A stretch of 64,000 nucleotides of DNA from Moniliella sp. 'wahieum' (lineage: Eukaryota), in contig RSEE01000094.1 in NCBI GenBank assembly GCA_003971905.1, forward strand, positions 1 through 64,000. Reading direction: 5' to 3'. The notes under the pieces are model-generated. The model was not told where the DNA came from, searched no databases, and saw only the letters and a program-made list of their open reading frames with translations. Within the stretch, counting starts at the first letter, position 1. Every line of letters starts with the position of its first letter. Below are positions 24,609-56,865 of this stretch, piece after piece. A program made the position numbers and the translations under genes.

Positions 24609-25590
24609 GATACTGGGGCGAGCATCCTGATCACAGTATGCAGCTAGTAGGGCATCCGGTGGCCACGTTGCTCGTGGAATTGTCCCAAACCCAAGATGAT
24701 GAGAGAGTGGCGATGGCACAACGGGCGGAGTGGTGATGGCTGGCGCGTTGCTCGAGCAGACTGAAAGGTTGCTAGACAAAGACATCTACTCCATCCGCAT
24801 GGCCGATAGGTCCGACCGCAGTACATGTGGTGAGATTGCGGTGGCCGAGCAGGAGGCGGGCCCAATTGGGTTTAGTCGGACGGAGAGGAGGGAATTGCTC
24901 AAGATGGCCAAGATGTCGTAAGGCTCCAAGATTGTCAACATGTCGAAGTATCAGTTTGGCCCGATGGCCGTGGATGCCGTTCTGTCCGTGGTCTGCCCGT
25001 GGCCGACTTGGAGCGAAAGGACGTGGACTTTGAGTTGATAAGGTGGATGGCAAAGTAGGTGGGTCGTTGGAGGACGGCGTCGGTGCATGGCTGGCGTGGT
25101 GTTGGCCAAGGACTTTAGACATTCGGAAGAATGCCTCAGAGCGTACACGAGGCTCGGCTTGCCTGCCCGTTTGAACCGCCGCGACCTAAGACGAAGCGCA
25201 AGCTGGACATTACCACGGTGGACGAGTACCGCAAGCTGCAAACGTGAGAGCGGGAGACGTTTCTTGCTCCAAAAGAACCTGCCCGCGGTCCGGTAAGTGG
25301 GCGCGGAACAGAGATGGAGCTGGTTGCGATCACGATGGGCGGGCTGCGTGTGTCTCGGTTTGAGGATCTGTCGCCTGCCCACCAGCTGGGGCGGAGTCTG
25401 GGTGGTGCGGCAGGGCTGGTGGCGAGCAGTACGCGATGCGCGCGTCCAGCCAAGCGTTGGACGGGGCACCGCTTGCACTTGCGGCCAGCAGTGGGCTGGG
25501 GCTCATCGAGAGTCCGACGGCCGCCAAGAGCAGGCAAATGCTCAAGGCCAACTCGCGGCTGAGGATTGACTGCATCATGGGCACCTCGGG
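24609..25590 (+). pseudogene. CCT5: Decayed, internally deleted copy of CCT chaperonin epsilon subunit
   Basis: [134 protein letters not shown]; in-frame stops at 24919, 25245 and 25294; both termini missing. Confidence 0.9.
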
Positions 25591-25974
25591 CTCGCCTGCT
25601 GGTCACCCAGCTGGTCCGCACCGTGCTGAATGTTGATTGACGATGTGATCCGGCAGCACGGCGTGGAGTAACCCAATCGCACTGCATCCTATTGCTCTCC
25701 TGGCTAGCCGAACCGAGCACACACCAACCCAGGTGACCGTCCGTGGCCCGTTCTGTAAATGGCGAGGAGGGATGGGGGGATGGATAAATGAAGGAAAGTG
25801 GATAGGTGTTGGCAGTATACTATTATCCAGAAAACGCACCATGGATATGCCCCTTAGAAAGGACACCTCACCACCAGCACAACCACCCCTACCTTCATGC
25901 AATCGTCGGGGACGAAGGACAACCAAAAAAACCAAGGCAAACCCCCTAAACGCCTACGATGCCGAAAAAAAATG

Positions 25975-26062
25975 TTCCCCAACCGGGAGTCGAACCCGGG
26001 TCTTCACGGAACAGCTGCTGGAGCTTGAAAGCGTGACATCATAGCCGTTGGACCATTGAGGA
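25975..26062 (-). tRNA. tRNA-Glu (TTC) with 16-nt intron
   Basis: Acceptor stem TCCTCAA/TTGGGGA, anticodon stem TCACG/CGTGA with CT-TTC-A, intron at the canonical 37/38 position, T-arm GGTTCGACTCC, downstream oligo-T. Confidence 0.95.
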
Positions 26063-26276: not shown

Positions 26277-27157
26277 ATGACCGACCACCGTGCCGTTCTC
26301 CCCTCCAACGCTGAGGCCCAGGCGCACGCCGAAGCCAGCCTGCACGCCTCGTCCCCGTCTCCTCCTCCGCAGCAGGGCGACGCGCCCGACGGCGGTGCTC
26401 ACCCCCCCTCCTCCCGCGAGGCGGAGCCTGAGGAAGAGGAGAGTGACCTGGACGACGATGCGCTTCTGGATGAGCTGGACAGTGGCGCGGGTGGATTCAA
26501 TATGGAAGCGTTCCGGGAAGCGAGGATGGCGGAGATTCGATCGGATGCGGCGCGTCGTGCGACCGAAGCGGAGCGGGACGCGCGGGCAGCGCCCGGCGGC
26601 GGGAACGCCAACTACCGCGGTCGCTACACGGAAATCAAGACGGAGAAAGAGCTGCTCCATCTCTCTTCATCCGAACCCAACTGTATCATTCACTTTGCCC
26701 ATCCGGACTTTAAGCGCTGTGCGCTGATGGACCGGCATCTCGAGGTGCGTGCCCCCCCCCTTGCTCTGTTCCTGTCCCCTGTCTTGCGGAGAGGCTGCAC
26801 ATGCTAACAGCTGGCTGGCTTGTGCAGCGTCTGGCGCCGCGGTACCCGACCGTTTCGTTTTTGAAGATTATGGTGGAGAATGCGCCGTTTTTGGTGGACC
26901 GGCTCAAGGTGCAAGTGTTGCCGGCCGTGTTTGGGTTTGTCAATGGCGTATCGAGGGACAAGTTGATTGGGTTTGAAGCGTTGGGCAACAACGATGCGTT
27001 TACCACCTCGACACTGGAGATTCGGTTGCAATCGTCTGGCGTCTTGCCCAAGCCAGAGCCCAAGCCGATCTTTGGCGCGGCGGGCAACGCGGTCAACCCA
27101 GGCAAGACCATCCGCGGGCGGCAAGAAGATAGCGATGACGATCTGGATTGGGATTAG
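26277..27157 (+). CDS. PLP1: Phosducin-like thioredoxin-fold protein (Plp1/TXNDC9 type)
   Basis: FREARMAEI, CIIHFAHPDFKRCALMDRHLE, VENAPFLVDRLKVQVLP, LIGFEALGNNDAFTT, acidic tail; intron ~26744-26827. Confidence 0.9.
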
Positions 27158-27245: not shown

Positions 27246-28420
27246 TTAACTTCGTTGGCGAAGCTGCGCGTCGACATTGGCAGCAGGTGTGGGGAGCGAC
27301 GATGTCGTCTTACCCACTGGTGAAGCTTGGTTGGTGGGCATGTTGGTCTCGGTTGGTTTCTTTGCTGGGTGGGACGGAACGTTGCGATAGGTGGGAGAGC
27401 TGGCATGAGCGTAGCCCACCGTACCGGCCAGCACCATCGCTGTGCCTGTCCATAGGTAAGCTGGGTTGGGTACCTCGGCGCCGCGTGCGCGCGCCCAAGC
27501 AATCGACACGGCCAAGGAAGCAGCCTTGCGTACGGCCAAGGTGAGGGTAACCCCCACCGAGCTGACCCGCGTGGTGAGCCGATTGACACCGGCAATGCAT
27601 ACAATCTGTGTCAGCGCATTGGCCAAGAGGGGGAGACCAAAGGCCGGGGTGGTGCGAGCCTCGTGGACCTGTTGGACAAGGGAGCTGCCAAAGAGTAGGA
27701 AGAGGGGAAGGGAGAGAGAGTGGGTGTAGAACAGCGATTCCTTCCAGGATGCCTTGCCGTACTTTTTGAAGGTGCCTTCTTGCCACAGCCCCATGAAACC
27801 GCTGACGACCAGACTGAGCAGAAGCAGGCTAATGCCAATCAGGTACTGGGCATACATCTCCTTGGAGACACTTAGGCCGTTGTCTCCCTTGCTGCCAGCA
27901 GCAAGCGTGGAGAGGGTTACCCCGCCAGTGACGAGAGCAGAACCGAAATGACTTGAAGGAGATTGTATCTGGGAGGAGGTGGGTGGGGGTCAGGACTCAG
28001 GACCGGGGATGGGGAGCAAGAAAGGGGGGAACACGAACTTTTTCCGGGCAATAGCCCAGCCCAATACCATGTTGACCACCAGGCCACCGGAGCGGAAGAT
28101 GATGTGGACCGACATGGGGACGTGGAAGGCAAACGCGACATTGTTGAGCAAGTTGGTGGTGAAGAAGAGAGCGACTTGGATGCCCCAGCGCTGGAGCGGA
28201 ACGACGGGCGGCACAAAGCGCGGCAGCCAGGAGCCGCTGGGCCGGGCAAGCTGGGGGGAGGAAGCAGAGAGTGACGGCGAGAAAGCCCATGGCCGTGACG
28301 AGGGTGCCGCTGGGGGAGGAGGACGGTGCACTGCTCGAGGGCGACGGCATTGGCCATGCAGCCGCCAAAGATGAGCGACATGGTGGTCGTCATGTCGGCC
28401 AGCTCGAGCGAGGGGAGCAT
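27246..28420 (-). CDS. YEA4: UDP-GlcNAc/UDP-xylose transporter (UAA family, Yea4/SLC35B4-like)
   Basis: SLIFGGC, LNNVAFAFHVPMSVHIIFRSGGL, WKESLFYTHSLSLP, TQIVCIAGVNRL, VRKAASLAVS. Confidence 0.9.
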
Positions 28421-29677
28421 GGCGGGGGGGGATGGGGGCACGAAGAGAGTTGCTGTCGTCCACGGAAGGCACACCGGCGGCGAGCGCAGCAGGGATGCCT
28501 AGAAGATAGCCGCACGTCTCGCCGCGTCTTCGGCCGGAAGCCAGCCCACGCGGGGCACCAAGCAGTGTTGAACTGTTCAACGTTCATGCAGCCCTGTGGC
28601 CGCTTGGATTGCTGGCTGGAGAAGATTAGGGTTGCACGTCGGCTGGGCATCCAGTGCTAGGGTTGCCCTCCCGCCCTGGCCAAATATAGACTCCAACCGG
28701 AGGGTAGGACTGAGAGCGGCAGAGCTCTCGCTGACCTTCCCGCTCATCTACACCGCCGTCCCTCTGATCCCCGCTCTGATTCGACCGCCTGTTCGGTACT
28801 CTCCAAGTTGGTATGACGCCTAGTAGAGGGCACAGAGGACGGCGCTTTGTGTATGGATCGTACGAAGGCTATATACGTGTGTGGCACGACGATGGTGTGC
28901 TAACCGTTCGGCCACTCATCACGGAACTGGATCTAAGCAGTCCAAACACACTCTATTAAAAAACGTGTCCTTCAGGATCAATGATCGAACGTGTAAGAAC
29001 CAAACGGAGAACCATTCACGTCCGGTAGTACGATATAGCTTGGCTGCTCTGGGCTCCCAGTTCCACTTTCTTCGTCGCGAGTGTCTCGCTCCTTCCCTGC
29101 TCTTCCGCTTCACACCCCATGTCCTCTGCTCTTGCTTCTTCCCCACGAACAATTGCTACATCCCTTGGCCTAGTTCCGATTCTGGTCTCCCTCTTCTTAG
29201 CCCCGACTGTGACAGTCCTCGCCTTACTATATCGATCGCTTCACTCCTCCCTCTCCGACTGCTCCCACTTGCGGGAGCCGCGCAGCGTAGAAGAATGGTA
29301 AAGTCACTCATACTGGGCCTTGCCCCCTTATTCCCTCGGGGTATACGGGCAGCAGTAACTAGTAACTAGTAACTAGGCACTAGCATCAGAGTAAAGTACC
29401 TCGGGTGACCGGTGATCGATGATCCGGGATCTGAATCGATGATCGAGTGATCTGGGCTTGCGCCCAGGGCGGAATTGCGCAGGGAACGCGTCATGATGCA
29501 TGATGCATGATGGATGATACCGGACGCCGGATGGATGACGTGCATGACACACCCCGCCCCCTTAAGAAACGCCAGGGCTGGGCTCGTCGGTGCGCTCTGC
29601 GCTCTGTGCTCGCCGCTACCAACGCCTCCCCGGTCCCCCCCCCCGCGCTTTGCCTTGGTGCCTTGGCCCATTCCCCC

Positions 29678-30611
29678 ATGTCTGCTGCCAGTCTCCGGCC
29701 TGCGCACGACGCACTGATCCACGCATTCGACACTTATGCCCCCGGCTCCGACCCGGCCCCGATTCGTGCCCAGCTGACCAAGCTCAAGATTGGCCTGACC
29801 CAGGCGGGGCTCTTGCTGCCCGCGTTTACGCCTCCACCGACGGCAGCGGGCCCGGACGCAGCGTCGGGCCACGTCGCGTTGCCTGCCGATGTCGACTCGC
29901 TGGTGTTGGCGCGCGACGTGCTGGAGGTGGGTGCGTTCTTCAGTGTGCGCATCAAGGACGTCAAAGCATTTGACCGCTACATGGCGCTGCTGGCAGTGTA
30001 CTACAACGACTATGCACCGCAGTTGCCCGTGTCGACGAACCATGAACCGTTGTTGGGCCTCCAGCTGCTCCGTCTCTTGTCGTCGAACGAGATTGCTGCG
30101 TTCCACACGGCCTTGGAAGCGATCCCCACCGAGTTGGTCCAGCAATCCTCCTATCTCCGCCACCCGGTCGACTTGGAGCGATGGTTGATGGAAGGCTCGT
30201 ACTCCAAGGTGGGCGTGCGCAGCGCGAGGCGCCCCGCCCAGAACATCGTTTCTTTATCGACAATCTCTTGGGTACCATCCGGCATGAAATTGCGTCGTGC
30301 GAGGAAAAGGCGTACGATTCGTTGCCACTGCAAGATGCGGCGGTATTGTTGTTTTTTGATAAGGTGGAGGACATTATGGCGTTTGCCAAGGAGGTACGTT
30401 TGTTCTTCCCATGTGCTGTGGGCCTGATTCGAGCGGGTACTGACGCAGGTGGTTGTGGGGGGCCCCCTTGTAGCGTGGCTGGTCCATCAACCCGTCGACC
30501 CAGACCATCCACTTTGCCCAGACGAGGGACGATGTCGCCAAGACTGTTCCGCGCAAGAACACCATTGCGCTCAACTTGCAGTTTGCCAAGGAGCTGGAGA
30601 CGATCGTATAA
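29678..30611 (+). CDS. RPN12: 26S proteasome lid subunit Rpn12
   Basis: ARDVLEVGAFFSV, LLRLLSSNEIAAFHTALE, HPVDLERWLMEGSYSKV, IRHEIASCEEKAYDSLP, terminal FAKELETIV*; intron ~30394-30473. Confidence 0.95.
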
Positions 30612-31160
30612 CGCGGCAAACCCATCTCGTGGCATCCTATGTACTCTTCGTATGAGGGCCACGTAGCATTAGATCGGCTCCCTCATGGCGGACATGCGGG
30701 CGGAAGGAGAGAGACAGGAGGCTGCATGTGCGTTGCATGACGGAACAGGGGGAGATTCGCTTGACGGTTGATGGGTACAATGCTAGTCGTGGAGAGAGTC
30801 GAGTAGCATGGGCATGGGCATTCTACCCTTCAGCACCTGGGCGAATCGACTGGATGCTCGAGGGTGTCTGTCCGAGCGAGGGCGGGGGCGGGCAGGTGCC
30901 AGGAGGTGTCCGCCGGGACAGGCATCAGCAAGTGGCTCATCACATGTGATGTGATGTGATGGCCAGCCGCACATGAGCTGAGGTGCGAGGCAGGCCGACG
31001 CACGGAGGCGCTGAGGCAGCCAGGCCCAGCTGGGAGGCGTGGGATGACGTAAGCGGTTCGCGTAGTTTCTAGCCGACGTGTTTCGGGCGAAGGATCATAT
31101 GGGCTGCTGTCTTTTCTGCTGCCGACAAGGTCGCCCCCCACCACCACCAACGCCTCAGGC

Positions 31161-34107
31161 ATGCGTCGCCCCCGCTTCTCGTCGCCGCTCAAAACGGTGG
31201 TTCGCCGTGCGCGCTCGCAGCGCAAAACCATCTCCGCATCCACCTCCGATGTCGAGGATGCGCTCGACACGCACGACAGCCCTGCCTCCCCCGCCTCGCA
31301 ACGGGCCAACCCCACTCCCGCTGCCCGCCTCAGCGACGGCTCAACCTCTTTGCCGACATTGAACCCAACCCACTCCAAGGAGTCACGCCCGACACGCTTC
31401 AGGCCATGCCCCGGCGCGAACTTACGGCGCTGTGCAAACGCCTGGGCCTCAAGGCGGGCGGGAAGAACGTGGCGCTGATTGCGCGCATTGAGTCCATGCT
31501 GCCCCCGCCCCCCTCGCGCTGCCCTAGTGCGCTAGACCGATCTGCTTCTTCCCTTGCAAGTGAAGTATCGCAAGCCAGCGCACCTGCCTCCCCATCTGTT
31601 CACGCCACTCCCGAGCCCTCAAATTTCGACTCAACTTTCAACCCTTCCAAAGCGGAGCGTTCCACTATTCATCCAATGTGGCAGTGAACACGAGGATGAG
31701 TCGGATGAGTCTGCCGATCCCAACGATTCCCAATCCGTCTCCTTCGCCTATAGTCACCACAGCGGCGCAAACGGGGATGTGGCTGAGCCGACTGCCCCTC
31801 TGGATTCCGCCCGTCCCCACACCTCCCCGTCTTCTGCATCGTCCCCGTCTTCTGCCTCAATGGTGATGGAAAAGGTCGCCTCGAGTGATGGAGGTGATGC
31901 CGAGATCATGGATGACAACCAAGATGAGCCATCTGATTCCAACGCAACCGTGGAAAGCGCCCAGAACGAGCCTCAGTTTCCTTCCTTCACGAAGGAGGAC
32001 ACACCTCATTGAGCCCCAAGACCCAGTGGACCCGACGGAACCCGTGCCCACCACTTCTCTCACATCTCGACCCGCAGCGGAGGAGATAACCACTCCTACG
32101 GAAGAGTTGGGGCACGCGGATGAAGACGGACCAATGCAACAAGACGACGAGCCCAAGTCGGAACAACTGGTCATGCCAGACGGTATGCTTGCCTCACCTC
32201 AGTGCGTTGACACACATCTGGGTCCGATTCCGTATCACCTCCAGCCCAAGACGCACACGCGACCACGTTGGATGTGCACACACCGATTGATCGCGTGAAG
32301 ACTTTGCTCTTCTCTAAGATCGCGGGCCCTTGCTGTCTCCGTCCCATCATCCTGCCCCCCCAAGAAGTCAAAGCGAACCAGTATCCGCACATCTCGCCCG
32401 AGGCCGTCTATGCCTGGCGGCTGGTCCTTTGCACCCTTGGTAGCCAAATCGGTGGGAGCAGGACAAAAGGCATCAGCCGATGAGCAGCAAACTGTGTCAC
32501 CCAGCCTGAAACGCCTGGCACCAAGGATGAAGCAATCGAGGGTGTGGCGTCTTCGCCTCCCCAGGCGCAAATTACCGAAGGAACAGGATCGCCCGCCCAA
32601 GTTCCTTCCAAGTCGGAGGAAAAAGTGGCAATGGATGTAAGCGATATTGCGCCGCCCAAGCAACGGTCCCCACTACGAGCAACTCCACGTTTAGCCAGGT
32701 GACGGCTAAACTGATGGACGAGTTGCACGCTCGCCTCGCCCGTGCAAGTCCCTCGTCCCGCCTGGCTAAGAGAGAGGGACACGATTCGTCACTCTCGAGG
32801 GAGGGAGTGGCTGCACCACTTTACCCTTCCATCCCCCCCGGGCGCAAGCTCACAGCTAGCACAGGAGCGCCGCTGATCCACGCGGGCTGGACCGCGCCTG
32901 CCCCAAAAGAAGGCAGTGTCAGCGCCAAATTTGCCGCGGCCCACGAGGCTCAATTTGGCAAGATGACCAGCATCACCGACACCGTCCGTCGGCCCACTGG
33001 TCATCCCGCTGCGGGACTGAAACGGACGCGGTCCGCAGCCTCGTTGGCCAGTGCCCGCACCGTGTCCGCATCGAGCACCAGCGAATCGAGTGACCGTCGT
33101 CCCGCCAAACGCTCTCGCCCTACCGTCACTCAGACCCGTGCTGCCACTTCCTCGGTGCCCCCCTCCCAGCCCTCCACTAGCTCTGCACCGCTCAACCGCC
33201 CAACTGCTCGTTCCCGCTTTTCCAATTTGATGACTGGGGCCCGAAGCGTGGCCAAGAAGACTCTGCCCGCTCGTCCCACACGTGCCGAGCTGTTGCGCAC
33301 GCAAGCTGTCGCCCAGCGAGCTAGTACGCGGAGCGCCAGTACCACCCCCCCCTCTCTCTTCGTGCCAGACCGTCCTCATCCAGTATAAAATCGGTTCGAA
33401 CGATGGACAAGCACACGCCCGCCACCTCTGCGCAGGACGGGGGGCCCCAGCGGCAGGTGGACCGAGTACGAAATTGCTCCCCACCGCCGTGGAGAAGGCG
33501 GCAGGGAAAGGGATGGGGACGGGGGGGACGGGGACGGGGAGGGGACGGGGACGGCGGCCGGATCGTGCGCCCCGTGGCGCGCAACCAGGCAAGCCGGCAC
33601 CTGTGGGAATGCCGGACCGTCACATGGCACTCTGCTTTTGCTCCCGTCCGTACGGGGGGCCAGAGTGATCAAACCGATCCCCAAGCGGACCGCGGCCAGC
33701 ACCAAAGCTCCCCCTCCCCTTTCCCAACAGGTTGGCGCGGCCCAACCCCGGTCCACACTGAGCTCAGCACCGCAGAAGATCAATGTCCCTGTCGCAGAAC
33801 GGCGGGCGGGTGCGCGGCCCGGCGGAGTGCCAAATCGAGACCAGCTACGGGAGGCCCTGGCAAAGGTGCCCAGGCCAAAACTTCTTCCAAACCGACCAAA
33901 CTCATGCCGGGCAGCGCCAAGAGCCGTAGCAGCTCGAGCCGATTGATCGGGCGGGCCGGCGCACGCTCGACCGTGGTGGAGGAGGCTAAGGTCGCTGCGC
34001 GCCGGAACGAGCTGGCTGCGCGCGCCAAGGCGCGCTGGGAGGCCAAGAAGGCTAGTGCGGGCGCGGGGATCGGTGAATCCGATCGTGTATACCATCATGA
34101 ACGTTGA
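31161..34107 (+). CDS. SAP-domain, Ser/Pro/Arg-rich hypothetical protein (multiple frameshifts)
   Basis: MPRRELTALCKRLGLKAGGKNVALIARI matches the SAP fold pattern; contiguous low-complexity coding blocks including KFAAAHEAQFGKMTSI. Confidence 0.6.
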
Positions 34108-35422: not shown

Positions 35423-35890
35423 CTAGCCTTCAAATATGGCCAACCAACTGGAAGGAATCCAAGAAGCAGCAGGGAAGAGCTGCTTCATCCTCCAAAAGGA
35501 GGCACTCCAGCCATACAGGTGCCAGCGGGTGAACACTAGGTGGTAAGGCGGGGCCGGAGGGGGGGGTAGCAATGGAGAAGTGGGGGATCAAACGGTCGTT
35601 TGGATCAGCCTCTAGCCACCCACGGCACACGAGCAAGTCCAAGACGCAACCAACGTACCATAGTAGCCAAACCGGCGTCCCACAAACTTGCCCGCATAGG
35701 GCAGCAGGACAGTCTGGATCACAGTTTGGAACTGCCGAACGGATGCATCCCACTCCTGCTCCAGCAGCGCTCTTCCTCCTCCGAGTCGTAGTACTCTGAA
35801 TCCCGATCGCTGCTGACCAAACTGGCAGCTGAGCGGTCAGCGCGGTCGGAAGCGGCGGGCTGCCCTGGGTCCCCCGCACTTGCCCTGCAT
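35423..35890 (-). CDS. MIM2: Mitochondrial import protein Mim2 (not captured as one ORF in the track)
   Basis: Acidic [11 protein letters not shown], then [36 protein letters not shown], a GTACGT..CTAG intron, then [12 protein letters not shown]. Confidence 0.82.
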
Positions 35891-35928
35891 GGCTGGGATG
35901 GTGGATCGCAACGCATCCGCCTGGCCAT

Positions 35929-36056
35929 GGGTGGATGGGTGGACGAGTGGACGAGTGGACGAATGGATGGGTGGATGGATGGATGAGTGGATGGGTGGAC
36001 GAGTGGATGGATGGGTGGACGAGTGGATGGATGGGTGGAAGGGTGGGTTGGTGGGT
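35929..36056. repeat. Degenerate (TGGA/TGGG) microsatellite upstream of MIM2
   Basis: GGTGGATG / AGTGGACG units repeated over ~125 bp. Confidence 0.85.
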
Positions 36057-36902
36057 AGATGGCTGATCCCCTGTCAGCTGCTACTCGGTGCTCTCTGGGG
36101 TCCTATTACTTGGCTCCACACAGCGCCCTCCGGCCTCCTCGGCGCAGTGTGGGGCAATTCATTCAGCCGCACCGAGCAGGTGTGGGAACCAAGTGGGAAT
36201 GGCTCTGTCAAATGTCACATTTCAAACGCTGCTACGCTGATTAACGATTGGCAATCAATCATCGTCATCGATCATCGATCATCCACCATCGACCGCATCC
36301 AATATCCACACCGCCAAAGCTGCTGCCTGTTCTGAGCTCTGAGATACCACCCTCTCACGCTCCAAGTCCATGGGTGCGGGGGACGACTAGCGACCGCCAA
36401 GGACCACCAGGGACGACTGCCCTGGCCAAAACCCATGCACATTGGTAGTACTGCGGTTGGCCTGCCAGCTTGGCGCTGCAAGGCAAGCGTGATACAGAGA
36501 AACGAATGGTGAGCGCTCAGGCTGAGCGACAGGCAGCTCCCAGCACGCCACACCCAGCTTTTAAGACAGGCGGGTACCCCCGGCTCCCATCGGCGCAGTA
36601 GCCGTTTGGAAACAGGACGGGGAACGAGGAACGAGGGAGGAAGAACGAGGGAAAGGGGGCAAGGGAAGAGGTATGTGGGAGGAAGACGCATGGGGTGGTC
36701 CAATAACGTGTGACATGTAACAAGCATGCGAGACGCCGACCAGCGAGACTCGGTCGGGGCGAGTGCGGCCAGGAAAGGAGAGTAGTCGGGAGCAAAGAGG
36801 GTGGGGGCAGTACCAAAGTTCACGACGGGAAAGGGAGCATGATCAGCGAACGCAGCGAACACGGCGAACGCCAACGCAGCCCACGAGCGAGAGGGGAGAC
36901 GT

Positions 36903-43384: not shown

Positions 43385-44749
43385 ATGGAAGAGCTTGGGA
43401 TCGAGACCACCACGCTCCAGGCCGTCGAGCCTACCCTGACCGATGCGCTCGCCGAGAAGCAGGCGTGCACCACGAGATGGCCCAGGAGGAAGACACCTTT
43501 TTGCGCTACAAGAAGCTGCAGCGCCACCTCGACTTTCTCAGCACCATGGAAGACTGTGTTGTACGTCGTCGCTTGTCCCCCTCCCCATCCCATCCCATCC
43601 CTTCCCATCCCTTCCCATCCCATCTGGTCCGGTCTAGCCACTAACCCTTTCCCCGTCTGTCGTGCATTGCAGAAAGACGAGCAGCGCAACTTGAAGCGCG
43701 AGCTGATTCGGGCGCAGGAGGAGGTGAAGCGGATCCAGAGTGTGCCCTTGGTCATTGGTCAATTCCTCGAGGCCATCGACGAAAACACTGGCATTGTCGG
43801 CAGCACCACTGGATCCAACTATGTCGTGCGCATTCTTTCCACCATTGACCGCGAGCTGCTCAAGCCGTCGTCGAGCGTAGCGCTGCACCGGCACAGCAAC
43901 TCGCTGGTGGACGTGTTGCCGCCCGAAGCGGATTCGTCGATTGCCATGCTGGGCGAGCACGACAAGCCCACAGAGACGTACAACGATGTGGGTGGGCTGG
44001 ACGTGCAGAAGCAAGAGATTCGGGAAGCGGTCGAATTGCCGCTGACCGAGTTTGACCTGTACAAGCGCATTGGCATTGATCCTCCACGTGGTGTGCTGCT
44101 CTACGGCCCGCCCGGGACAGGCAAGACCATGTTGGTGCGGGCCGTGGCCAATGCGACGACCGCTTCCTTCATCCGTGTCAACGGGTCGGAGTTTGTGCAA
44201 AAGTACCTAGGTGAAGGCCCGCGGATGGTGCGCGACGTGTTCCGTTTGGCAAGGGAGAATGCACCGGCCATCATCTTTATCGATGAGATTGATGCGATTG
44301 CGACCAAGCGATTTGATGCCCAGACGGGTGCGGACCGGGAAGTGCAGCGGATCTTGCTCGAGCTACTGAACCAGATGGATGGGTTTGACCAAGATGCCAA
44401 TGTCAAGGTCATCATGGCCACGAACCGTGCCGACACGCTGGACCCGGCCCTGCTCCGTCCCGGTCGACTGGATCGGAAAATCGAGTTCCCCAACCCATCG
44501 CGTCGGGAGCGGCGACTGATTTTCCAAACCATCACGGGCAAGATGAACTTGGCGCCAGATGTGGACTTGGAGGACTTTGTCGGTCGCCCCGATCGCATCT
44601 CGGCCGCCGACATTGCTTCGATCTGCCAAGCGGCTGGGCTGCAAGCCGTGCGCAAGAACCGCTATGTCATCCTCCCCGCCGACTTTGAAGAAGCGTGGAA
44701 GCAGACGGTCAAGAAGGCGGATGCTGGGCGGCTGGACTTCTACCAGTAG
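43385..44749 (+). CDS. RPT3: 26S proteasome AAA-ATPase Rpt3 (subunit 6B)
   Basis: [54 protein letters not shown]; intron ~43561-43671; N-terminal frameshift. Confidence 0.97.
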
Positions 44750-44976: not shown

Positions 44977-45597
44977 TTACAGATACCTCCGTGCGCTGGC
45001 ACGAACGCGCGAATCAAACGAGGCGGACAAGACGGGTGAGGTGGGCTCGCGGAGCGGGTTGAGGTTCAATTTGACCCACAGTTCCCACACGTCGAGAAAG
45101 AAATTGCGAATACCATCGTCATGCTTGTGCTCGTGCAAGATGAGGAAGCGCGTGCCGCCCGGGACGACAAAGGCGCTGGTGGACCATTCGTTGATCCGAT
45201 CCACCCCACGCAGGTAGAGCGCGCCGTCGTACAGCGCCACATCCTCCACCGCATCAAGACTGCTGTGCGCAATCATCTGCAACACATCCTTATCGTTGTA
45301 CCGTCCAAAACTCAATCCGGCGCGCGTTCGCCCACCAGGACTGGCGCCGGCCGTCAAAGCCGTCACGCCGCCGGGCAACGATCCCAGTGGCTGGCCAAAC
45401 CCAAACGGGCCCGCCTTCTCCTTCTCTGCCGACACGCCCACCTTCAACTTGGGATCGGCTCGGTTGGTGCTCGTGCTGGGGGTGGGGCTGGTGGCCAGGA
45501 GCGACGATGGGCCGACCGAGCCGCCTGAGCGCGCAGCCAGGTCGGCCTCGTACAGCGGGTCGTCACGCGGACCGACAATGACAAAGTAGTAGCTCAT
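44977..45597 (-). CDS. TRS20: TRAPP subunit Trs20 (sedlin)
   Basis: MSYYFVIVGPRDDPLYEA, LQMIAHSSLDAVED, HDDGIRNFFLDVWELWVK, FDSRVRASARRYL. Confidence 0.95.
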   Translation of the reverse strand: MSYYFVIVGPRDDPLYEADLAARSGGSVGPSSLLATSPTPSTSTNRADPKLKVGVSAEKEKAGPFGFGQPLGSLPGGVTALTAGASPGGRTRAGLSFGRYNDKDVLQMIAHSSLDAVEDVALYDGALYLRGVDRINEWSTSAFVVPGGTRFLILHEHKHDDGIRNFFLDVWELWVKLNLNPLREPTSPVLSASFDSRVRASARRYL

Positions 45598-45659
45598 CGG
45601 AGGGCGGGGATGGCGACGCTGCTATTGATGGCGGTTGCGGCGGCTGTTGTGGTGTGGTT

Positions 45660-46159: not shown

Positions 46160-47500
46160 TCAGTGTGCTGCCATTTTGGTTCCCGTTGTCTCCTCTTGTT
46201 CCCGACTTTGGATTTCCCGAGCGAGTTGGACCAAGTCTTCGCCGGTAGCCATCGAGGGATCCACAACGTCGCGCGGGACCATGTTGGCCGCGTATTTGGG
46301 CGCCGCTCCGCCCGCCGCTTGTTGTTCTGCAAAGGAGCGGATCAGACGCAGCATCGGCCGGCGCTCCTCCTGCTCTTCCTCATCATCCTGGACCTGGTCC
46401 TGGCCTGGTCCTGGCTCGCGTCGGGATCGGGGAACGGAGAATTGGGGGTGTGGCTGTGGCTGTGTCTGGGAGCAATGGACGCCTCGGTGTCGACCGATAG
46501 GCTAGCCGTGTCGACCGATAGGCTAGCCGTCTCGCCCACGGCTCTGTAGCGGAAGTAGCTTGGAAAACGGAGGGCTTCCAACTCGTCCCAATCAAACAAG
46601 AGCGCATCGGTGCGGGGCAGGTAGGGATTGAGATCAACAAGAAAGACCGAGGCCATGTTACGGGTCACATACACATCCGCTGCATAGTCAGCAATGGGCG
46701 CGCCCATTGTCGTCGCACCAGCGGGCCCGGAGGCGTCGACGGGGACAGGACGGCGCTTGAGATGGGTCTTCCAAAATGAGAGAGGAGATTGATAAATTCA
46801 TCTTGCCTCGGTTGAGGCTGGAGGTGTTCGTAGTACACCGTATCCCGCTGGCAAATGGCAACCAACTGGTTGGCCCGGACAAAGAGGCGGAATTCATGGG
46901 AAGGGGGCATGCTGAACCACTTTTTGAGCGTCAGCCATAACGTTGGACGAGTCGGGGTTCCATTTTGCGACTGTACAGCGCCATCTGCCTCGGCAGGGGC
47001 CGGGAAGGAGGCAAGCTCTTGCGCTTGTTGAATGTCGTTCGTGATAAAGTCACTTGACTTGAGCAGGAGGTATACATCTGAGGGTGACATGCACTGGAGG
47101 TCGTTCCCGGGTAGCATCCACCCAGCATCCTGAGGGGCACTCCAGTTGAGTTTCGGAAAACACGGCCATCGTACTTGTCGAGGACAGAGCGGATGTGGCG
47201 ATTGAGAGGACCAAAATCATAGTGGCGCACGCCAGAGTCGTCCGAGTCGGAGGACGTGGGATCGAGGCCAAGGGTCGTCCCAATCTCTTGAAGGGCGGCA
47301 GTCCCATTCACACCCTCCGCACCTGGGGGGATGTGCAGGCCATCCTCCTCGAACCAATCGAGAAAGTCAGGTTGGAGGGCAGAGAGGTTGACAACAGTAG
47401 CTTTGGGGGAGATGCGCTTGAAGAGGGGGAACCAGTTGTGGAACTCGGTCTGCTCTAGTGCGGTTCGCACAGGAGTGAGAGGGACGGGCGAGGTAAGCAT
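46160..47500 (-). CDS. CDC123: Cdc123 (D123) eIF2 assembly protein, frameshifted; end approximate
   Basis: FHNWFPLFKRISPKA, CMSPSDVYLLLKSSDFI, LKKWFSMPPSHEFRLFVR..AICQRD, LVDLNPYLPRTDALLFDWDEL. Confidence 0.9.
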
Positions 47501-47736
47501 AGCGATGGTGATCCGGTGATGGTGGTGGCGATGGCAATAGCAATGGCCATGACGGTGGAGGTGGCGGCGGCCTTAGCAATTAAAAGCATGCACCTTCCCG
47601 ATGCGGGCAACGGCGTTTGCTAAGGGCTCGGTTCAATCTTTCGGGGGGCACCCGGCTGTCTTCGGCTGGATTCCAGTGATAGTGGCAGATTTAATTAGTC
47701 CAGCCCGAGTGGGCTGCCACCACCTTCCTCAGCTTG

Positions 47737-48422
47737 ATGATGCAGCTCCCAGTCGATCCTCACGACGACGCTGAGCTGTGCATGGCCATCCGGGGTCCCG
47801 GCGCGCCTGACAGCTAGCTGGCACGCGCATGGGCTGCCTCTCCAGCGCCGATGTGTTCTGTGCGCACGGCATCCTTCTGCCCCCAAAGCCGCCTCACATG
47901 CACTCCCCCTGGCTCGAGCCCATGCCAACCAGCGCGCAGCGCACCGACCAGCTTCGAGCGCGTTCGCCGGACCAGGTCACCGGCGCGCTGGACGAGGGTG
48001 TGCTTTCTTGTGCGCGTCGCTCGATCAGTCCGCTGGGTAGCGATGAGAAGGAAGACCTGGACGCGATCGGTAACAAGGCGGGACGGCTGAGCGATCCCGG
48101 TTTTCGGCATTCTCAGGGCCCATCCCACAGCCATTAAGGCCTGCCCGGATCATAAGCATGCCCCCCTTGCTCATCTACATCGAGGGGCAGGTGCGCGGCC
48201 GAATCGTCCGACCTGACGCGCCCAGAAGTTGGTTTGGTGGGCATGACAACCCAGGGAGCGGATAAGGAGCTCTTGCTGGCTGTCACGGGCGCTGTCGTCC
48301 CTACGGATGCCGATCCTCTCTCCGCCGCGAACGAAAGTAGAGAAGAGGAGTATGTCCAAGCCACCCCCTAAAACAGCATCCGCCAAAGCACCCTTGGTGC
48401 CAATAACGATGATCTCGGCTGA
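47737..48422 (+). pseudogene. PLP2: Decayed, internally deleted copy of phosducin-like Plp2 (PDCL3/VIAF type) retaining an intron
   Basis: MQLPVDPHDDAEL, GT..AG intron 47778-47845, ADVFCAHGILLPPKPP; later AIKACPDHK..PLLIYIEGQVRGRIV, GMTTQGADKELLLAVTGAV, NSIRQS..NNDDLG*; central thioredoxin segment absent. Confidence 0.75.
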
Positions 48423-48732
48423 GACTATACACCTACGCGCCAAGCGCCTATACCTACGTCGACAATCACCTATGCTCTGCATTTCTGTTATGGAAACGAC
48501 CGTTTGCGGCCAGATACGGGGAGATCCCAGCTCGCACACACGTAGTAGGAAAACATGCCAGCCCATCTATCAAGACACCCCCCACAGAACGACCACAGAC
48601 ACACTCGGCGTCACATACGAAACAGAACCGACGCGCAAGGAATTGCCCATGTCCCGCGGGGGGCGAGCACCGTGCACCGTGCACCGTGCAGGATAGAAAA
48701 CAAACAGACAAGAGTATAGTAGGCACCCTGAA

Positions 48733-51263
48733 TCAATTGGCCTCAACCGCAGCTGGAAGGATGCGGTGCAGTATGTCGATGCGGGCGGCGATGGAGGTCA
48801 ACGTCTCGAGCGCTTCGGCGGCGTGGGCGGCGGGGTGACGGTATGGCGCAGTGCATGGGGGCTGAGGTGCTTGATCTCGTCAGCCAAGGCCGAGTAGACG
48901 TTGCGTTGGTGGAAATAGGCGTCGACCCAGTGGGCAGTGAGGGTATGCAACCGTGCTTGGTCCTCGGGCTGCAAGTGGGCTACAAAGGCCAGGACGGGGT
49001 CCATGTCCATGCCCGTGTCCATGTCCATATCCGTGCCCGTGTCCGTGTCGTTCTCAGCCAACAGGGCATCAATCTGGTCCACAAGCGCATCCAGCGCCTT
49101 GGCTTCCGCCTCGACTTGACGCGCTTCTGCCTCGGCCGCTTCCGCACGCGCCTTGCGTTTACGTTCGGCACGGCGAGCGCGAGTGCAGGTGGCACACTTT
49201 TTCGGGTCGTGCGAGTGGTCAATGGCGTGGTCGTCAGCGGCGTGGGCAGGGGACGCAGCGGACCGGACATCGACCCCACTCGTATCCATTGACCGACTCA
49301 ACTCGAGCTGGGAGGGCACTGGGGTGCTCACTTCGTCGCTAGCGACCGACCCTCCGGCCCAATGGTTCGAGGTCAGACTCGAAGAAGCAGGGGGGTAGAG
49401 ACGCGATCATCAAGTGCCAAGAAGGGAGGGGCCGGAGCTTGGGCTTGTCCTGCCAATAGGCCAACCCGTCTGGATGCCGCTACCGGGGGAGACGAGAGAC
49501 GGCAGGGCGCGGAGGGGGAAGGTGCTAGGGCCGTAGGACGAGCGGGGGAAGAAGCTGCGTGTCTGGAGGTGATGTAGGTGTCTGGCGAGGCAGGCCGAGT
49601 GTTGGTCTCGATGCAGTGTCCAACGAGGGAAGGCGACGTGGGACTGGCGTTGACACGCCCCAATCCCACTAGAGTCGTGGGAAAATTCCTTTGAGCCTTG
49701 AGCTCGGCCACATCGTCTTGCAGCTGACGAACCGCAATACGAAGCCTGGCCACCTCGGCCGTCAAGTCGGCTTCGCGTAGTCGCTCCTCAGGTGTAAACT
49801 CAGAAGGTGATTGCGGTGCGGTGCCGGTCGACATGGCCCGCATAAGGTTTGGGCGGGCGCAGCGTGAGCTAAGAGGCGAGGGGACGACGAACGAGGGCGA
49901 TGGGAGCGGTGACATTAGGGAAGTTGACGGCTCTGTTCTCACAGCAGAACGAATGGGGGGGTGAAGCTGTTGGTGTAACAGACTGGACACGTGCCCCCTC
50001 ATCGCATCCACCGTAGCAATGATCTCTCTTTTCCGCCAGGGCACAGGGGTGCCGTTCGCGTGCGGGGGGGGAGAAGAAGGTGGCAGGGCGTGGGGACCAC
50101 CGGTTGCGAGACCGGCGGGAAGAGAGGTGCTGAGAGGCAGTTGGGCCCTATGGTCCCGGAGCCATTCGTCACGCGGACATGAAAGAGAGGGAGGCATGGC
50201 AATAAGCGGATGGGTCAAGGTCGGACCCTGATCCTGACCTTGGGTCTGGGTCTCACTTTGAGCTTGGTCCCCAGCCTGAGCCGCATGTTTGTCACGCAAG
50301 CCAGCGGCGGCAGACTGAAGAGCATTGATCGGAGCGGCCGCTTGAGCATCACGATGACGCACCTCGGAGGGGTCGTGGAGCAGATCAGAGTGAAGCTGGT
50401 CCAGCTTGGCTTGAATTTCGTGCAACTGATCGGCACGGAACGAGTCGTGTCCTTGTGGTCGGGACGTAAGCGGGACGTGCTGGACATAGAGTTCGTTATC
50501 AGGACTGTCCAATGCGTCCGACACGCCAGTGACATTGGGAAGATGAAGACCTTGGAGCGGGATGCCAGCACCAGCGTTGGCACCCGAAGGCAGAATCAAG
50601 TGTTCTGGGGAAGTGCGTCCACCGTCCCATTCGACCGGCTTGGTCGATGCGTTAGAGGCCGGCGGCACGTGCACGCGAAACGGTGTGGTTAAAAGGACGG
50701 GCACGGCCGCGGAAACGAAACCGAGCGGCGGCAGCGTCCACCTGAGAGTTCTGGAGACGCACAGGACCAGGGGAAGAAACATAAGGAGAGTCAGAATGGG
50801 TACTATACAGAGGGAAAGTAGCCCACTTGAGAGGAGCGACAACGGACTTCTTTTTCAACCATCCGCAAGCGATCGAAGCTGTTGATGTGGTCGCCGTGGG
50901 GCGCAGGACGTGTGACCGTGCGCGACAAAGTTGCAGAAGGGCTGCGGGAAGCGGCATGGAAGGCCGAGGAGCGGGGTTCGCGCAATGCTTCTGCCCATAC
51001 TCCGTTGTCTGCGGGCGGGTCCGAGTGGGAGAGATGGGTAGAAGTGGAGGTTGGACGGAGCCGGTGGGCAGAGCGGCGGAGGTTGGGAGGGGGGAGGGGT
51101 ACGGGGTGGAGGAGGCGAGTAGGGGCAGGCGGGAGAGCGGGTAGCGGCCGCGGGGACCGCGCCGACGGGGGGCGGGGCCCTGCGTCTTCGCTGGCTGATG
51201 GAGCGTTGGCGAGGCAGGCGGACATGAGCGGAGAGCGCGGGCGGAGAGGCTCTGGTCTTCCAT
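48733..51263 (-). CDS. Ppc89/Cep57-like spindle pole body protein (frameshifted; start approximate)
   Basis: Coiled coil AEVARLRIAVRQLQDDVAELK, HDPKKCATC motif, C-terminal DAYFHQRNVYSALADEIKHL..AAHAAEALETLTSIAARIDILHRIL resembling Cep57_MT_bd. Confidence 0.65.
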
Positions 51264-52292
51264 GGCAACTCTACACTCCAACAGCAGCAGGTGGTGTTGT
51301 TCAACCGCCATCATCCACTGCTTTTGGGAGGCAACATCCCATACCTCTATAGTTGAGTAGTATCCACCTCTTATAGTTGCCGCAGGCGAGACGCACGCCC
51401 AACAGCCCGTCAAAAAACTAAGGGATATATATAACAGAGCCTTAAGCGACCACATCTACTACGCTTCCTCGCTTGTGCCCCACAACGGCCTGCTGTGACA
51501 TGTGGCACGTGTGATACATGATGGTTGCGCATCGATCGTTGCCCGGGCAGTTCGTTATACCGTGGGTCATATAAGGCCCGATCCTTCCCATAGCCTCCTG
51601 TACCTCTCCTCAGAACCACATCCTCCATTCTCCTCTCCTCCTTGAGCAAACTAACATCTTGCTCGCCGTCGTAGTGTGGCATAGTATCCTCGCGTCGTCT
51701 CATACCCAGAGGGAAGAACTAATGTTCATTATAACCTTAAGGTAGTACTTGGCGTTATTGTCGGCACATTCTGCTTTTGTTCCAACAGCAATCGAAGCAG
51801 CCCCTGTCTGAGTTCTTCCGGCGGTCCCAAGGCGCTTTTGCGGGGCTCTGTGCACCACCCTCCGGTACGCAGACACGCAGTAATGAAACAGCCAGGAGCA
51901 CGTGCAGCGCCGCCAGGCCCGCTAATAGGGTAACGCTTTCATCTTTAATTTTTAGGTGATACAGGAAGGTGATGGAACGGTGGGCCGATGGTTACCCGGT
52001 TACGCGTTACGGTCGCTCAGCACGGCCAGTAAACATGGGAATTGTAGACGATGGCACGGTGGCCCGCTAGTGATATTACAGACTTTGAACATTCAATGAA
52101 GGGGAACCAAAGGTAATAATAAGGAAAAACGAAAGAAAGGCAGGGAAAACGAAAGTGAGGCGGGGCGAAGCTTCTTCGAAGGTGCACACAGGGGGGACAG
52201 GGAGGGGAAAACAGGGCGGAACCACATCATGGAGGAGAGGTGAAAGGGATCATTCGATCATCCTCCGTGGACCGGATCCACATCCGACTCGT

Positions 52293-54239
52293 TCAGCGCA
52301 GGTGCTTTTTGAAAAAGTCACGGACAAGGTACGCTGATCCAAGGTAGGTGCGGGGCAAGGTAGGTTGGTTATAGTCGACGGATTGGACGCCGAACCGAGG
52401 CGTCTTGCCTACCTCCCATTCTACGTTACTGGTGGCGGACCAGATCCAGGCGCCGACAACCTTGATCCGTCGGTATGAATGGACTCGAGGATTTGGAAGA
52501 GGTAGTTGCGGTAGTACAGTTGCCGGCCCGTGTCCATGATCAGTTCCCAGTACGAGTTCTTTTGAGCTTCGTCCTTCTCCGCCCAGCCAAACTCGGAGAC
52601 GACAATGCCTTGGGCGCGGGCCAGCGCTTGGCAATGTACTTCAAATGATCGCGGAACGCACCAGCCGTGTTGGCCAACCAGCTTGAACACGTCTCGTCCG
52701 GGTACGCCGTCGTGAGAGGCCACCCGTCCGACATGGTCATCGGGCCATAGGAACACCAGGGCCAGTTGGGGTGGGCAACGTTACCGTAGCATGCACTTGC
52801 ATCCTTGGCAGGCATCGACTGGGTGATCCCACTCGAGTAGTAGTCCGTGTTGTACACGTCGGCCGAGCCTTGCAGACGCCGCTTGTCGGCCGCAGTGAGT
52901 GGCGGAAGCCACTTGGCAGGCACCTCACGCTTCACCACGGGGGGGTAATCGTGGCGTGTCGGAGTGGATGGGGTCGCTGTACAGACCCAGGCCAAAGTCC
53001 ATCCCTCGCTGCACCGCGCCTTGTCGGCATCGCTGTTCGGGTCGAACGGCACGCTCAGCGACCCGCTGTTTTTGTAGGAGAGCACTGCCTTCTTGGACAC
53101 GGTCCCATCGTTTTGGTACTTGCGGAACAGCTCGTTCATCCGTCGTGGGCCTTGATCATGTACCCGGCGCATTTCACTGCGTCGACTTGGGCGGGGAATC
53201 GTAGCCGTAGATACCCTTCAAAGCGAGAATGTACCGGTCCGTGCAGTGGACGCTGGGCTCGTTGTGGGAAATCCAGTGCTGATGCCAGAAAACAACAAAG
53301 GGGGACGGGTTACTCGTCAGCTCAATGAAATCACAGGTAAAAACGAAAGAGGGGGAGAAGAGAGGAGTGAGAAACATACGTGAACACCCATGGGGCCCAA
53401 GGCCTTGAGCATCACATCCGCGTATTCGGCAAATGCGTCTACATAGGTGTGGTTCTGCTGGCCATTTTCGGAGATTTGAAGGTAGAGAGGCAGGTCCCAG
53501 TGCTGCATGCTGCAGGGTAACTGCTGCCTGCATCCCGTTCTTGTGGATTTCGGTAACCAAGTCCTTGTAGAACTGCAGACCCTCTTGCGATACATACCCG
53601 CGTCCCAGCGGCATGACGCGGGACCAGGACACACTGAAAGAGTACAGCTTGGCACCCATGGTGGCCACACGCTTAATGTCAAGGGGTACATGTAACGGAA
53701 GTTGGTAGCCACGTCAAACGTGTCGCCGTTGCGCATGTTGTTGGTGCGGTGGGCACCAGTCCCAGATCGAGGGGCCACGGCCATCGGCTTTGACTGCGCC
53801 CTCGACCTGCGCACTGGCCGAGGCGTACCCCCACAAAAAGTGCTCGGGGAGGGGTGACGTTGTCGCGACAAAGCCGAGCCCCAGTCGGGCTGATAGGGAC
53901 GGTGGGTGATGGATTGGGGCATCATCTCGTACTCGCTCTGGCTAAAGTTGCGGTACTCATACTGGATCTTGGCATACTCGACCGGCTTGTACCGCTCGAC
54001 CTCGGACCAGAGGAACTTGACTCGGCCCTGGACGGCAGCAGGGTTGTTGAAGTCGATGGGCTCGCCGCCCGGCGGGACATGGCCGCCAGCCTTGACATTG
54101 GGGTTGCCAGAGGTGGCATGGGAGGCGTGAGGGGAGGGGTGGGACTTGGAATGATGAGCGGATGCGGCAGCGGCAGGGGCAGGCGCAACCAGTGCGACGA
54201 CCGCCAGGCTGGCCGCCCAGGCGGAGGACAGAGACGCAT
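52293..54239 (-). CDS. Glycoside hydrolase family 1 beta-glucosidase with putative signal peptide
   Basis: [43 protein letters not shown], acid/base HNEP, nucleophile [23 protein letters not shown]. Confidence 0.92.
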
Positions 54240-56287
54240 GGGGGAGGGCGAGAAGAAGGGCACGGCGGGTGTATTGGGCGAGGGGGTGGGTATATATAGC
54301 AGCAGCACACCCGCCCTGGACGCGCTCGGGCAGGCATGGATGGGGCGGATCCAGCGGTCGATCCGACGTGGCTGCCGCCAGCGCAGGCCAGCGCACACAG
54401 CAGGTGACGAGTGACTGCAAGCGTGTCGGTGGCCTTCTGGATGGAGAAGTGCGGGGCAGCGGCCGGCACAGCAGCGCACAGCAGCGCACAGCAGCGCTGC
54501 CCTGCCAGGCCGCGTCCCGCACACTGCCCCCGTCCTGCCCTTGGTGGTGCCAATCTTCAGATCAGCGCGTCCAGCACTGCGGCCAAGTACCAAGTACTAA
54601 GCTCGCGTCCATCGTCACACGTCCCGGCCGCCCAGGCAGCCTGCTCCCTGCGCCCGCCTCCGCGCTGAGCCACCTCGCGCGGGCAGCATCGACACATGTG
54701 GAGCCCGACGCAAGGAGGTTGAAGCCGTTCAAGCAGGTGTAGTGCGTAACCGCCCCCAGTCCCCAGTACGCAGTGCGTCAGTACTCGCCCCTTGACACGA
54801 TCAAGGATCGTCAATCACCAACCTCAGATCTGTCCGGCCCCCGACGGCAGCTCGGCTCGGTCCTGCAAGGGCGTGCTGTGGTGGGTGGGAGTAACTAGTA
54901 ACTGGCAACTAGCAACTAGCAGAAAACGAAAGAATCGGGCTGAAGCTGAGGGCAATATGCCCCTGCAGGGTAATCGATGGTGTGAACGAGTAGGTGATCC
55001 CCGGGGATAGCCTAAACCGCGGTTGTCTGTTAACGCGTTACCACTTGAGACTGAGAAAGTAGCTTGTACGCTATTACCAAAAGTCAAGGACGATTGCACT
55101 GTGCAGGGCGGAAACAGTCAGAGCATCGCATCTTGTATGCTCCGGATGCTAGTCCGACGTGGCAGCAGGCAGAAGAAGGAAGGAGGAGAACGAGGCGCGA
55201 CGGTACCTATAATCCGGAGCATGCGAGTCGCGCAACACCGTAGCCACTGTTCGGCTTGCCAGCGACAGACACATGGCCCTTGTCGATCAAGCCACGCCAA
55301 GTGGTGTCACAATGGCATGCCACCGGTCACCTGTCACCTGTCACATGCCACCCCACCCCAACAGTATCGAGTATCGCCGCAGCACTGGCCTTTGGCCCGA
55401 TAGGGTTGGTGCGCCGGCAGCCGGCACGAGCTGCGCGAGTCCGAGCAGACGCGGCGATTCTGAGACGGTGGCGATGGCACATGGCATGGATAATCGATCA
55501 TCGATCATCAGCAACATCATCGCCCAGCATCATCGACCATGTTTGGTAAGGACGTGGAGCGGACTGGTGTGCCGGTTACATGGAAGTCTTTTAGTATCCA
55601 AAGACAGGACGATCAGGAGCTCGGATCCATTGCGCTTCTTCCCCTCGACCCCCTCATGGTCGTGGGTGGGACCTTCTTGGTCGCAGCCAAAGTCCAGCCC
55701 ACGTTATGTACTCGGGTGGAACAGAGGCGGAGAAAGGAAGGATCGGCATCTGGTGTGATGCGTGATCGCGCCTTCAGCAAGGCGCAGGCCCTGAAGGGCC
55801 TGAAGCGTGTGGAAGCGCGCCAGGGTTTGGCCAGGGTCGCCGGTCCTGACCAATTCAAGTCAAGGGATCTGGGGAAAGGTTGCAAAGGAACGTGGCACGG
55901 AGTGGCATGGCGGCAGTCTAGCCTCCGTCTGGATTCCCGTCTGGTCAAATTACGGAAAGCAGAGCGTTGAACGTTGAACGTGTTGAACGCGCTGAACTCC
56001 AACGTGGAAAGGTGGCATGTGACATGGGACATGGGACATGTGATCGGGATCACCTGGTGGGGCAGGCTAAGCGGCTAAGCGCTTAGGAGCGCTTAGGCTA
56101 AGCTTAGCGCTATATAATAGCCGGAACTGGTAAGAATAAGCCGGTAGGTAAATCTGAAGGGGCCAGGAATACAGTCTAAGTATTTCCTGATCAATATAGG
56201 CCTCTTCATGCTGAAAGAAGGATTGCTGGTATTATAAGGTGGACAGAGGATCAGAAAACTGGTAGCAAGCGGGTCAAGGTGATACAA

Positions 56288-56865
56288 TGGTGTAACAGCT
56301 GGACACGTGTCCCCCCAATAAACGGATTCACGCCGGAGTTATGATATCTCTTTTCCGCCAGGGCACGATGGTGCCGTTCGCGCGCAGGAGAGATGAAGAA
56401 GGGGCAGGGCGTGTGGCCTACCCGTTGCGAGACCGGCGAGAAGAGAGGTGCTGAGTGGCACTTGGTACTTGTGTGCCCTATGGTCCCGGAGTCATTCGTT
56501 CGTACTGCGGAGGCTGTGAGAGAGCGGGAGGCATGGCAAGCGGCGCGCCCACCGCGGGGCCAGCAGGAATACGAGCGCAGTCAAGCGGATGGGTCAAGGT
56601 CGGACCCAAATCCTGATATTGGGTCTGGATCTGACTTTTGAGCTTGATCGATGATCCCCAGTCTGAGAGCCACATGTTTGGCACCCAAGCCAGTGGCCGC
56701 ACTGAAGATGTTCTGACGTTGAGCATCACGATGAAGCACACGTCGGTGGGGTCGTGAGCAGATCAAGTGGAGCTGATCCAGCTTTGCTCGAATTTGTGCA
56801 ACTGATCGGCACAGAACGATTCGGGTGGCTTTGTGGGCGCGATATAACGGGGACGTGCTGGACAT
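56288..56865 (-). pseudogene. Decayed duplicate of an internal segment (49971-50487) of the Ppc89-like gene
   Basis: Collinear blocks shared with 49971-50487: TGGTGTAACAG, CTCTTTTCCGCCAGGGCAC, GTTGCGAGACCGGCG, GCCCTATGGTCCCGGAG, AAGCGGATGGGTCAAGGTCGGACCC, TGCAACTGATCGGCAC, GGGACGTGCTGGACAT. Confidence 0.9.

Follow-up and report, generated by a model that had tools for sequence, protein, structure and literature searches.

Gene relics of hemiascomycete yeasts are reportedly the subject of a paper published in 2004. In Saccharomyces, the whole-genome duplication left relics of ohnologues and was accompanied by reciprocal gene loss, and in Malassezia, a member of the Ustilaginomycotina, hybrid genomes exist that carry two copies of every gene. 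To our knowledge, these Malassezia hybrids are the only case of hybridisation or polyploidy described in this fungal group. The hemiascomycete relics, as described by Lafontaine and Dujon (2010; PMC2876123), are degraded intergenic copies with stops, frameshifts and deletions, which are recognisable only by translated similarity and derive mostly from lineage-specific duplications. Here, we describe relics in a stretch of 64,000 nucleotides of Moniliella sp. 'wahieum' (assembly GCA_003971905.1, contig RSEE01000094.1, positions 1 to 64,000), referred to below as the window. They comprise a dead copy of the chaperonin gene CCT5 (TCP-1 epsilon), a decayed partial copy of another gene of the window, and a candidate relic of a phosducin-like gene, PLP2.

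These relics are an ordinary, already known kind of genomic fossil and, alone, are no proof of a whole-genome duplication. They share the features listed above with the hemiascomycete relics, but differ from them in their host, which is a basidiomycete of the Ustilaginomycotina; in their origin, as two of the three (one of which is the candidate) come from normally single-copy essential genes; and in their location, which is not visibly subtelomeric or within adaptive gene families. As in Saccharomyces, an essential gene is present as a dead copy amid intact neighbours, which would be expected during gene loss. Ohnologue relics are defined by double-conserved synteny. One of the relics described here, by contrast with Saccharomyces, has a local parent. 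The Malassezia hybrids belong to the same subphylum and their doubled genes could decay, but the window bears no sign of two subgenomes, and its host represents another lineage, because the conserved part of its RPT3 protein was just 86–87% identical to Malassezia proteins.

The initial annotation had placed a decayed CCT5 copy at 24609-25590. Pfam, PDB and tblastn agreed on this identification and gave a slightly longer extent (Table 1), corresponding to CCT5 residues ~55-540; this is a dead, once-complete CCT5 gene. A frame starting at position 24541, with one stop read as X, matched positions 58-153 of the Cpn60_TCP1 profile with 44.5 bits (E = 1.1e-11; gathering score, 34.3), and other read-through frames matched positions 193-240 and 395-445. 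Small open reading frames (ORFs) on the forward strand between 24560 and 25633 matched profile positions 40-58, 58-94 and 394-446, in a scan that covered 68 of the 86 small ORFs listed. When an ORF of 72 amino acids (24703-24918) was compared with PDB, CCT epsilon was the best match (E = 2.6e-8, versus 2.8e-4 for CCT delta), and of 17 matched PDB sequences, the top 13 were TCP-1 epsilon (E = 2.6e-8 to 7.2e-6); as judged by sequence similarity, the subunit is epsilon rather than another CCT subunit. Against 1.84 billion representative proteins, the same ORF yielded a list of 109 proteins, mostly short fragments. A separate homologous-protein search with this ORF, set to longer proteins, returned nothing at E ≤ 0.001. 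Seven sequences were taken from the 109, and six of them were used as CCT5 references; the seventh (P0088), whose tail was unrelated, was excluded. By local tblastn, CCT5 residues 88-354 and 449-536 were collinear on 24647-25637 (summed E = 3e-29 to 4e-40), and weak collinear pieces extended the relic to 24546 (residues 55-83) on one side and to about 25650 on the other.

The CCT5 relic exhibited at least seven frame changes, at least two in-frame stops (a TAG within the conserved 'SLGSKIV' and another stop after 'RKLQT') and three large internal deletions, of about 30, 95 and 24 residues. Outside the frameshifted stretch, 18 of the 66 positions that were invariant in the six references were altered, for example in the conserved 'GIHPIRIADG'. 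Moreover, a block of 96 codons kept one frame and yet contained many replacements, as well as the TAG stop. This block and the altered invariant positions therefore point to decay dominated by substitutions, not to indel noise. The age of the relic, estimated roughly from the changed invariant residues, was ~0.14 substitutions per site. A coding-type composition was still apparent, with G+C fractions at the first, second and third codon positions of 0.54, 0.45 and 0.73 in 24703-24990, and of 0.45-0.55 (second) and 0.71-0.82 (third) over the pieces of the relic. CCT5 is essential in fungi where this has been tested. The presence of a dead copy therefore suggests that a live CCT5 lies elsewhere in the genome, and hence that duplication came first.

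The second relic, at 56.3 kb, was found by self-blastn of the window and is a real decayed gene copy. It paired with a segment in the middle of a gene that lies on the same strand at a distance of 5.8 kb (73% identity over 598 columns, E = 3e-96; Table 1). In a MAFFT alignment of copy and parent, 421 of the 504 aligned bases were identical (83.5%), with 83 substitutions and 17 gaps (Jukes-Cantor distance, 0.19). The base composition of the copy has shifted towards A+T: it had A or T where the parent had G or C at 40 mismatches, and the reverse was observed at 23. The copy, 0.58 kb long, is an internal gene fragment situated in a spacer, and stops were present in every frame. The pair is direct evidence that short pieces of DNA are duplicated and then decay in this region. 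The initial annotation had called the segment at 56288-56865 Ppc89-like; the decayed copy was borne out, whereas the name was not. The translated product of the parent is rich in serine and proline and contains coiled-coil-like stretches. Its ORFs (49376-50854 and 50655-51455) matched no Pfam family and the 493-amino-acid ORF had no relatives at E ≤ 0.001, so the label remains unverified.

Some further observations concern the surroundings and the structure of this copy. A decayed large tandem duplication was considered, but when 44-56.3 kb was compared with 56.3-64 kb by blastn at high sensitivity, nothing shared was revealed beyond an inverted match of 90 nt (56181-56268 and 63419-63497; 72% identity, E from about 1e-5 to 3e-7). 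This match lies immediately to the left of the copy and may represent either a small repeat or chance similarity. In addition, the copy contained, at 56.6 kb, an extra 42 nt (14 codons; alignment columns 326-367) relative to the parent region 50160-50165, and the parent gene may have undergone an in-frame deletion after the duplication.

The third sequence, at 47737-48422, had been annotated as a PLP2 relic. It is plausibly a dead gene for a thioredoxin-fold, phosducin-like protein, and we treat its identity as a candidate one. Stops broke all three forward frames of 47737-48435, and the codon-position signal was weak. Several motifs were present which we take to resemble phosducin-like protein 2/3. 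The Atlas language-model features of a 63-amino-acid ORF (48074-48262) were nearest to thioredoxin/HyaE clusters (0.89-0.90; recognition 2596), with all ten best matches within one clan, and the N-terminal ORF had no usable Atlas match. No Pfam match was obtained with 27 small ORFs and three read-through frames, phmmer searches with two frames and one ORF retrieved nothing relevant from PDB, and tblastn with the PLP1 protein of the window detected no resemblance. The Pfam and PDB negatives are weak, because the same tools barely detected the intact PLP1-like gene, whose exons matched no Pfam family at E ≤ 0.01 and whose thioredoxin and phosducin matches in PDB were themselves weak (E = 0.16-0.5). 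Thus, the stops and the thioredoxin-like features are in line with the initial annotation, whereas significant Pfam or PDB matches are lacking.

Table 1. Coordinates of the relics, their parts and the other features of the window
Feature	Position (nt)	Strand	Basis or remarks
CCT5 (TCP-1 epsilon, chaperonin) pseudogene, nearly whole-length, degraded	24546-25650	+	Pfam, PDB, tblastn
CCT5 residues 88-106	24647-24703	+	tblastn
CCT5 residues 106-201	24703-24990	+	Single frame throughout; TAG at the reference Leu of 'SLGSKIV'
CCT5 residues 201-354	24993-25373	+	Frame excursions, second stop, ~30 residues gone
CCT5 residues 354-449	~50 nt only		Lost
CCT5 residues 449-499	25424-25576	+	tblastn
CCT5 residues 523-536	25596-25637	+	tblastn
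Decayed partial copy of the middle of gene 49376-51455	56288-56868	-	Self-blastn
Parent segment of the copy	49971-50490	-	Within an open 493-codon frame
Candidate relic of a gene encoding a phosducin-like protein of thioredoxin fold ('PLP2')	47737-48422	+	Atlas features
HSP70	20134-21892	+	Pfam
ACBP (ACB1-like) gene, next to the CCT5 relic on its left	23148-23706	-	Pfam ACBP in two ORFs
PLP1/TXNDC9-like gene, intact, one intron, next to the CCT5 relic on its right	26277-27154	+	Translation
UAA transporter	27249-28583	-	Pfam
CSN8/PSMD8-family gene	29504-30663	+	Pfam
SAP-domain ORF	31073-31684	+	Pfam
Mim2 family (mitochondrial import 2), small intact gene	35615-35836	-	Pfam, 49 bits
PP1/PPZ-type phosphatase	36906-38364	-	Pfam
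PUF protein	39418-41019 and beyond	-	Pfam
RPT3	43385-44746		Open 454-codon frame
Sedlin	44980-45621	-	Pfam
CDC123 (D123), in three frames, next to the PLP2 candidate on its left	46163-47572	-	Pfam D123
Gene without Pfam family (parent of the 56.3-kb copy)	49376-51455	-	
GH1	52296-54561	-	Pfam
EF-hand protein	57974-58549	-	Pfam
NADP-isocitrate dehydrogenase (IDP)	59854-60814 and beyond	-	Pfam

The gene map was based on Pfam searches with stop-to-stop ORFs of at least 85 amino acids, in sets of 140, 140 and 119 ORFs; 13 ORFs outside the set of 119 were covered by a separate Pfam scan. The right neighbour of the CCT5 relic is presumably PLP1/TXNDC9-like, a name that follows the initial annotation. 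Pfam matches to NAD-GH at 20101-21707 on the reverse strand were antisense to HSP70, and this family is a known artefact of the HSP70 opposite strand and not a gene. The closest relatives of RPT3 were from Ustilaginomycotina, with 90% identity to Sympodiomycopsis, Parajaminaea and Tilletia in the conserved part and 72-75% to Thecaphora, Ustilago and Jaminaea over the full length; one partial library protein was 99% identical. The G+C fraction ranged from 0.53 to 0.66 per 2 kb across the window. The first 10.3 kb (1-10300) were in the lower part of this range (0.53-0.60), and none of their 46 ORFs of at least 85 amino acids matched a Pfam family at E ≤ 0.01. Self-blastn also revealed direct repeats in the left part of the window (6714-6809 and 7030-7130, 76% over 102 nt; 129-195 and 216-280, 94% over 68 nt) and a short tandem-like repeat at 35927-36062 (75% over 76 nt), of which the forward-strand translation contained repeated 'WMDGW/WVDEW' units.

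Several neighbouring genes contained indels of 1-2 nt in otherwise conserved sequence (HSP70, PPZ, IDP, CDC123 and GH1), which agrees with the statement of the initial annotation that the flanking genes have small indels only. The PPZ phosphatase gene, which has one normal intron of 82 nt, exhibited four gaps of 1-2 nt within ~450 nt, between perfectly conserved blocks (indel region 37433-37804). HSP70 was broken into seven ORF pieces that occupied three frames, and these had contiguous Pfam coordinates and scored highly per residue; CDC123 matched D123 positions 1-91, 90-206 and 217-257 in different frames; in the isocitrate dehydrogenase gene, the frame switched between adjoining profile positions; and GH1, with stops read through, scored 125.8 bits over the first 120 profile positions. 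RPT3, PLP1 and the UAA transporter were free of such indels. GH1 and IDP were considered as further relics, but they scored well piece by piece with stops read through and look like conserved genes with frameshifts. From the sequence, the indels of the five genes are most likely assembly or base-calling errors, because they are substitution-free in highly conserved proteins, as in an unpolished long-read assembly. The frame changes of the relics therefore cannot all be counted as decay; their substitutions, their stops and their deletions of 70-285 nt do count.

To assess relic density, eight other spacer regions (22.0-23.2, 28.6-29.5, 33.4-36.9, 51.5-52.3, 54.6-56.3, 56.9-58.0, 58.5-59.9 and 60.9-64.0 kb) were scanned using 150 of their 154 ORFs of 40-84 amino acids. 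The only real Pfam match was Mim2, and no further relic was detected, a result that gives no indication of a fossil in every spacer. The relic count is a lower bound, because relics in a state of decay like that of the PLP2 candidate would escape Pfam. Regarding synteny, none of 80 metagenome loci found with RPT3 had Sedlin, CDC123, PUF or PPZ as neighbours, and a text search of the literature by neighbouring Ustilago maydis gene numbers found no paper. Supplements of Ustilago maydis papers (PMC8306574, PMC4917244, PMC9767968, PMC10532341) give gene numbers for acb1, a phosducin homologue and CDC123, without annotated neighbours.

The CCT5 relic and the 56.3-kb copy are certainly real, and the PLP2 candidate is probably a third relic. 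As to their origin, we give about an even chance to the explanation that the relics are ordinary non-processed pseudogenes, formed by DNA duplications of limited extent and subsequent neutral decay. Duplication of a gene or chromosome segment at the DNA level would have produced redundant copies, which would then have decayed neutrally, with a functional CCT5 (and PLP2) presumably retained elsewhere in the genome. Two parts of this sequence of events are visible in the window: a whole-length CCT5 copy is dead, and a 0.58-kb piece of the parent gene was copied downstream on the same strand and decayed. In yeasts, most pseudogenes stem from species-specific gene duplications (PMC2876123). Limited duplication is favoured because the visible pair is local and partial, because no further relics were detected and because of this precedent in yeasts. 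The initial annotation had proposed duplication followed by decay, and the parent-copy pair agrees with this; the whole-genome duplication or hybridisation that it preferred has no positive evidence in the window, and the local copy is better matched by the alternative that it offered, namely an active process of DNA duplication.

Several points weigh against limited duplication. No parent of CCT5 or PLP2 was seen in the window. Both the CCT5 relic and the PLP2 candidate have approximately the length of a gene, and they lie 22 kb apart at gene-like positions, with gaps of promoter size. The age estimates, although rough, are similar (0.14 for the CCT5 relic and 0.19 for the copy-parent pair). 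A single large duplication, including that of a whole genome, would account for all this as well or better. Moreover, the PLP2 identity, plausible as it is, is weakly supported.

The next explanation, which we regard as rather unlikely, is an old whole-genome duplication or hybridisation with subsequent fractionation, in which the window would be one of two homeologous copies and CCT5 and PLP2 would survive in the sister region. It would account for two relics of single-copy genes (one only a candidate), about as long as whole genes, lying among intact genes, and for ages of the same order in the CCT5 relic and the local copy. However, no sign of a sister region was observed within the window, and the parent of one relic out of three lies close by on the same strand, whereas distant parents are predicted. 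Other spacers had no relic detectable by Pfam, within its limited sensitivity, and the frameshifted neighbours, whose proteins are otherwise conserved, look like assembly errors and not like early pseudogenisation. A more specific form of this explanation seems unlikely: an undescribed whole-genome duplication or ancient hybridisation in this Ustilaginomycotina lineage, with the window as a fractionating homeologue in which the essential genes CCT5 and PLP2 became pseudogenes and were slowly eroded by deletions, so that an unusual number of relics can still be read. The window gives evidence neither for nor against a genome-wide event.

It is quite unlikely that the relics are inserted copies, that is, cDNA or DNA fragments captured in spacers by retroposition or break repair while the originals remained untouched elsewhere. 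Such an origin would suit the 0.58-kb copy, which derives from the interior of a gene and lies in a spacer, and by tblastn the CCT5 relic consists of coding sequence alone, without intron-sized interruptions; the missing introns say little, because the genes here have few introns anyway. The CCT5 relic has no poly(A) tract on its 3' side (25637-25860 examined) and no bracketing direct repeats, although old marks could have decayed, and it reaches back to about residue 55 and thus does not exhibit the usual 5' truncation. Finally, it is highly improbable that a noisy or collapsed assembly has produced the relics by scrambling genuine single-copy genes: conserved genes of this assembly do contain many indels of 1-2 nt, but the CCT5 relic remains in a single frame over 96 codons despite replaced invariant residues and substitution-type stops, its deletions of ~70-285 nt are unlike the type of error in neighbouring genes, and the 56.3-kb copy and its parent lie in one contiguous sequence and differ by the substitutions and gaps counted above.

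If the relics are ordinary leftovers of duplication, their value is mainly for annotation, in which the stretch resembling CCT5 should be given as a pseudogene. The frameshifts in the neighbouring genes point to an assembly in need of polishing. If genome-wide paired regions with complementary losses proved to exist, they would reveal a polyploidy or hybridisation event, and surviving relics would then, as is rarely possible, allow the loss of genes after duplication to be read.

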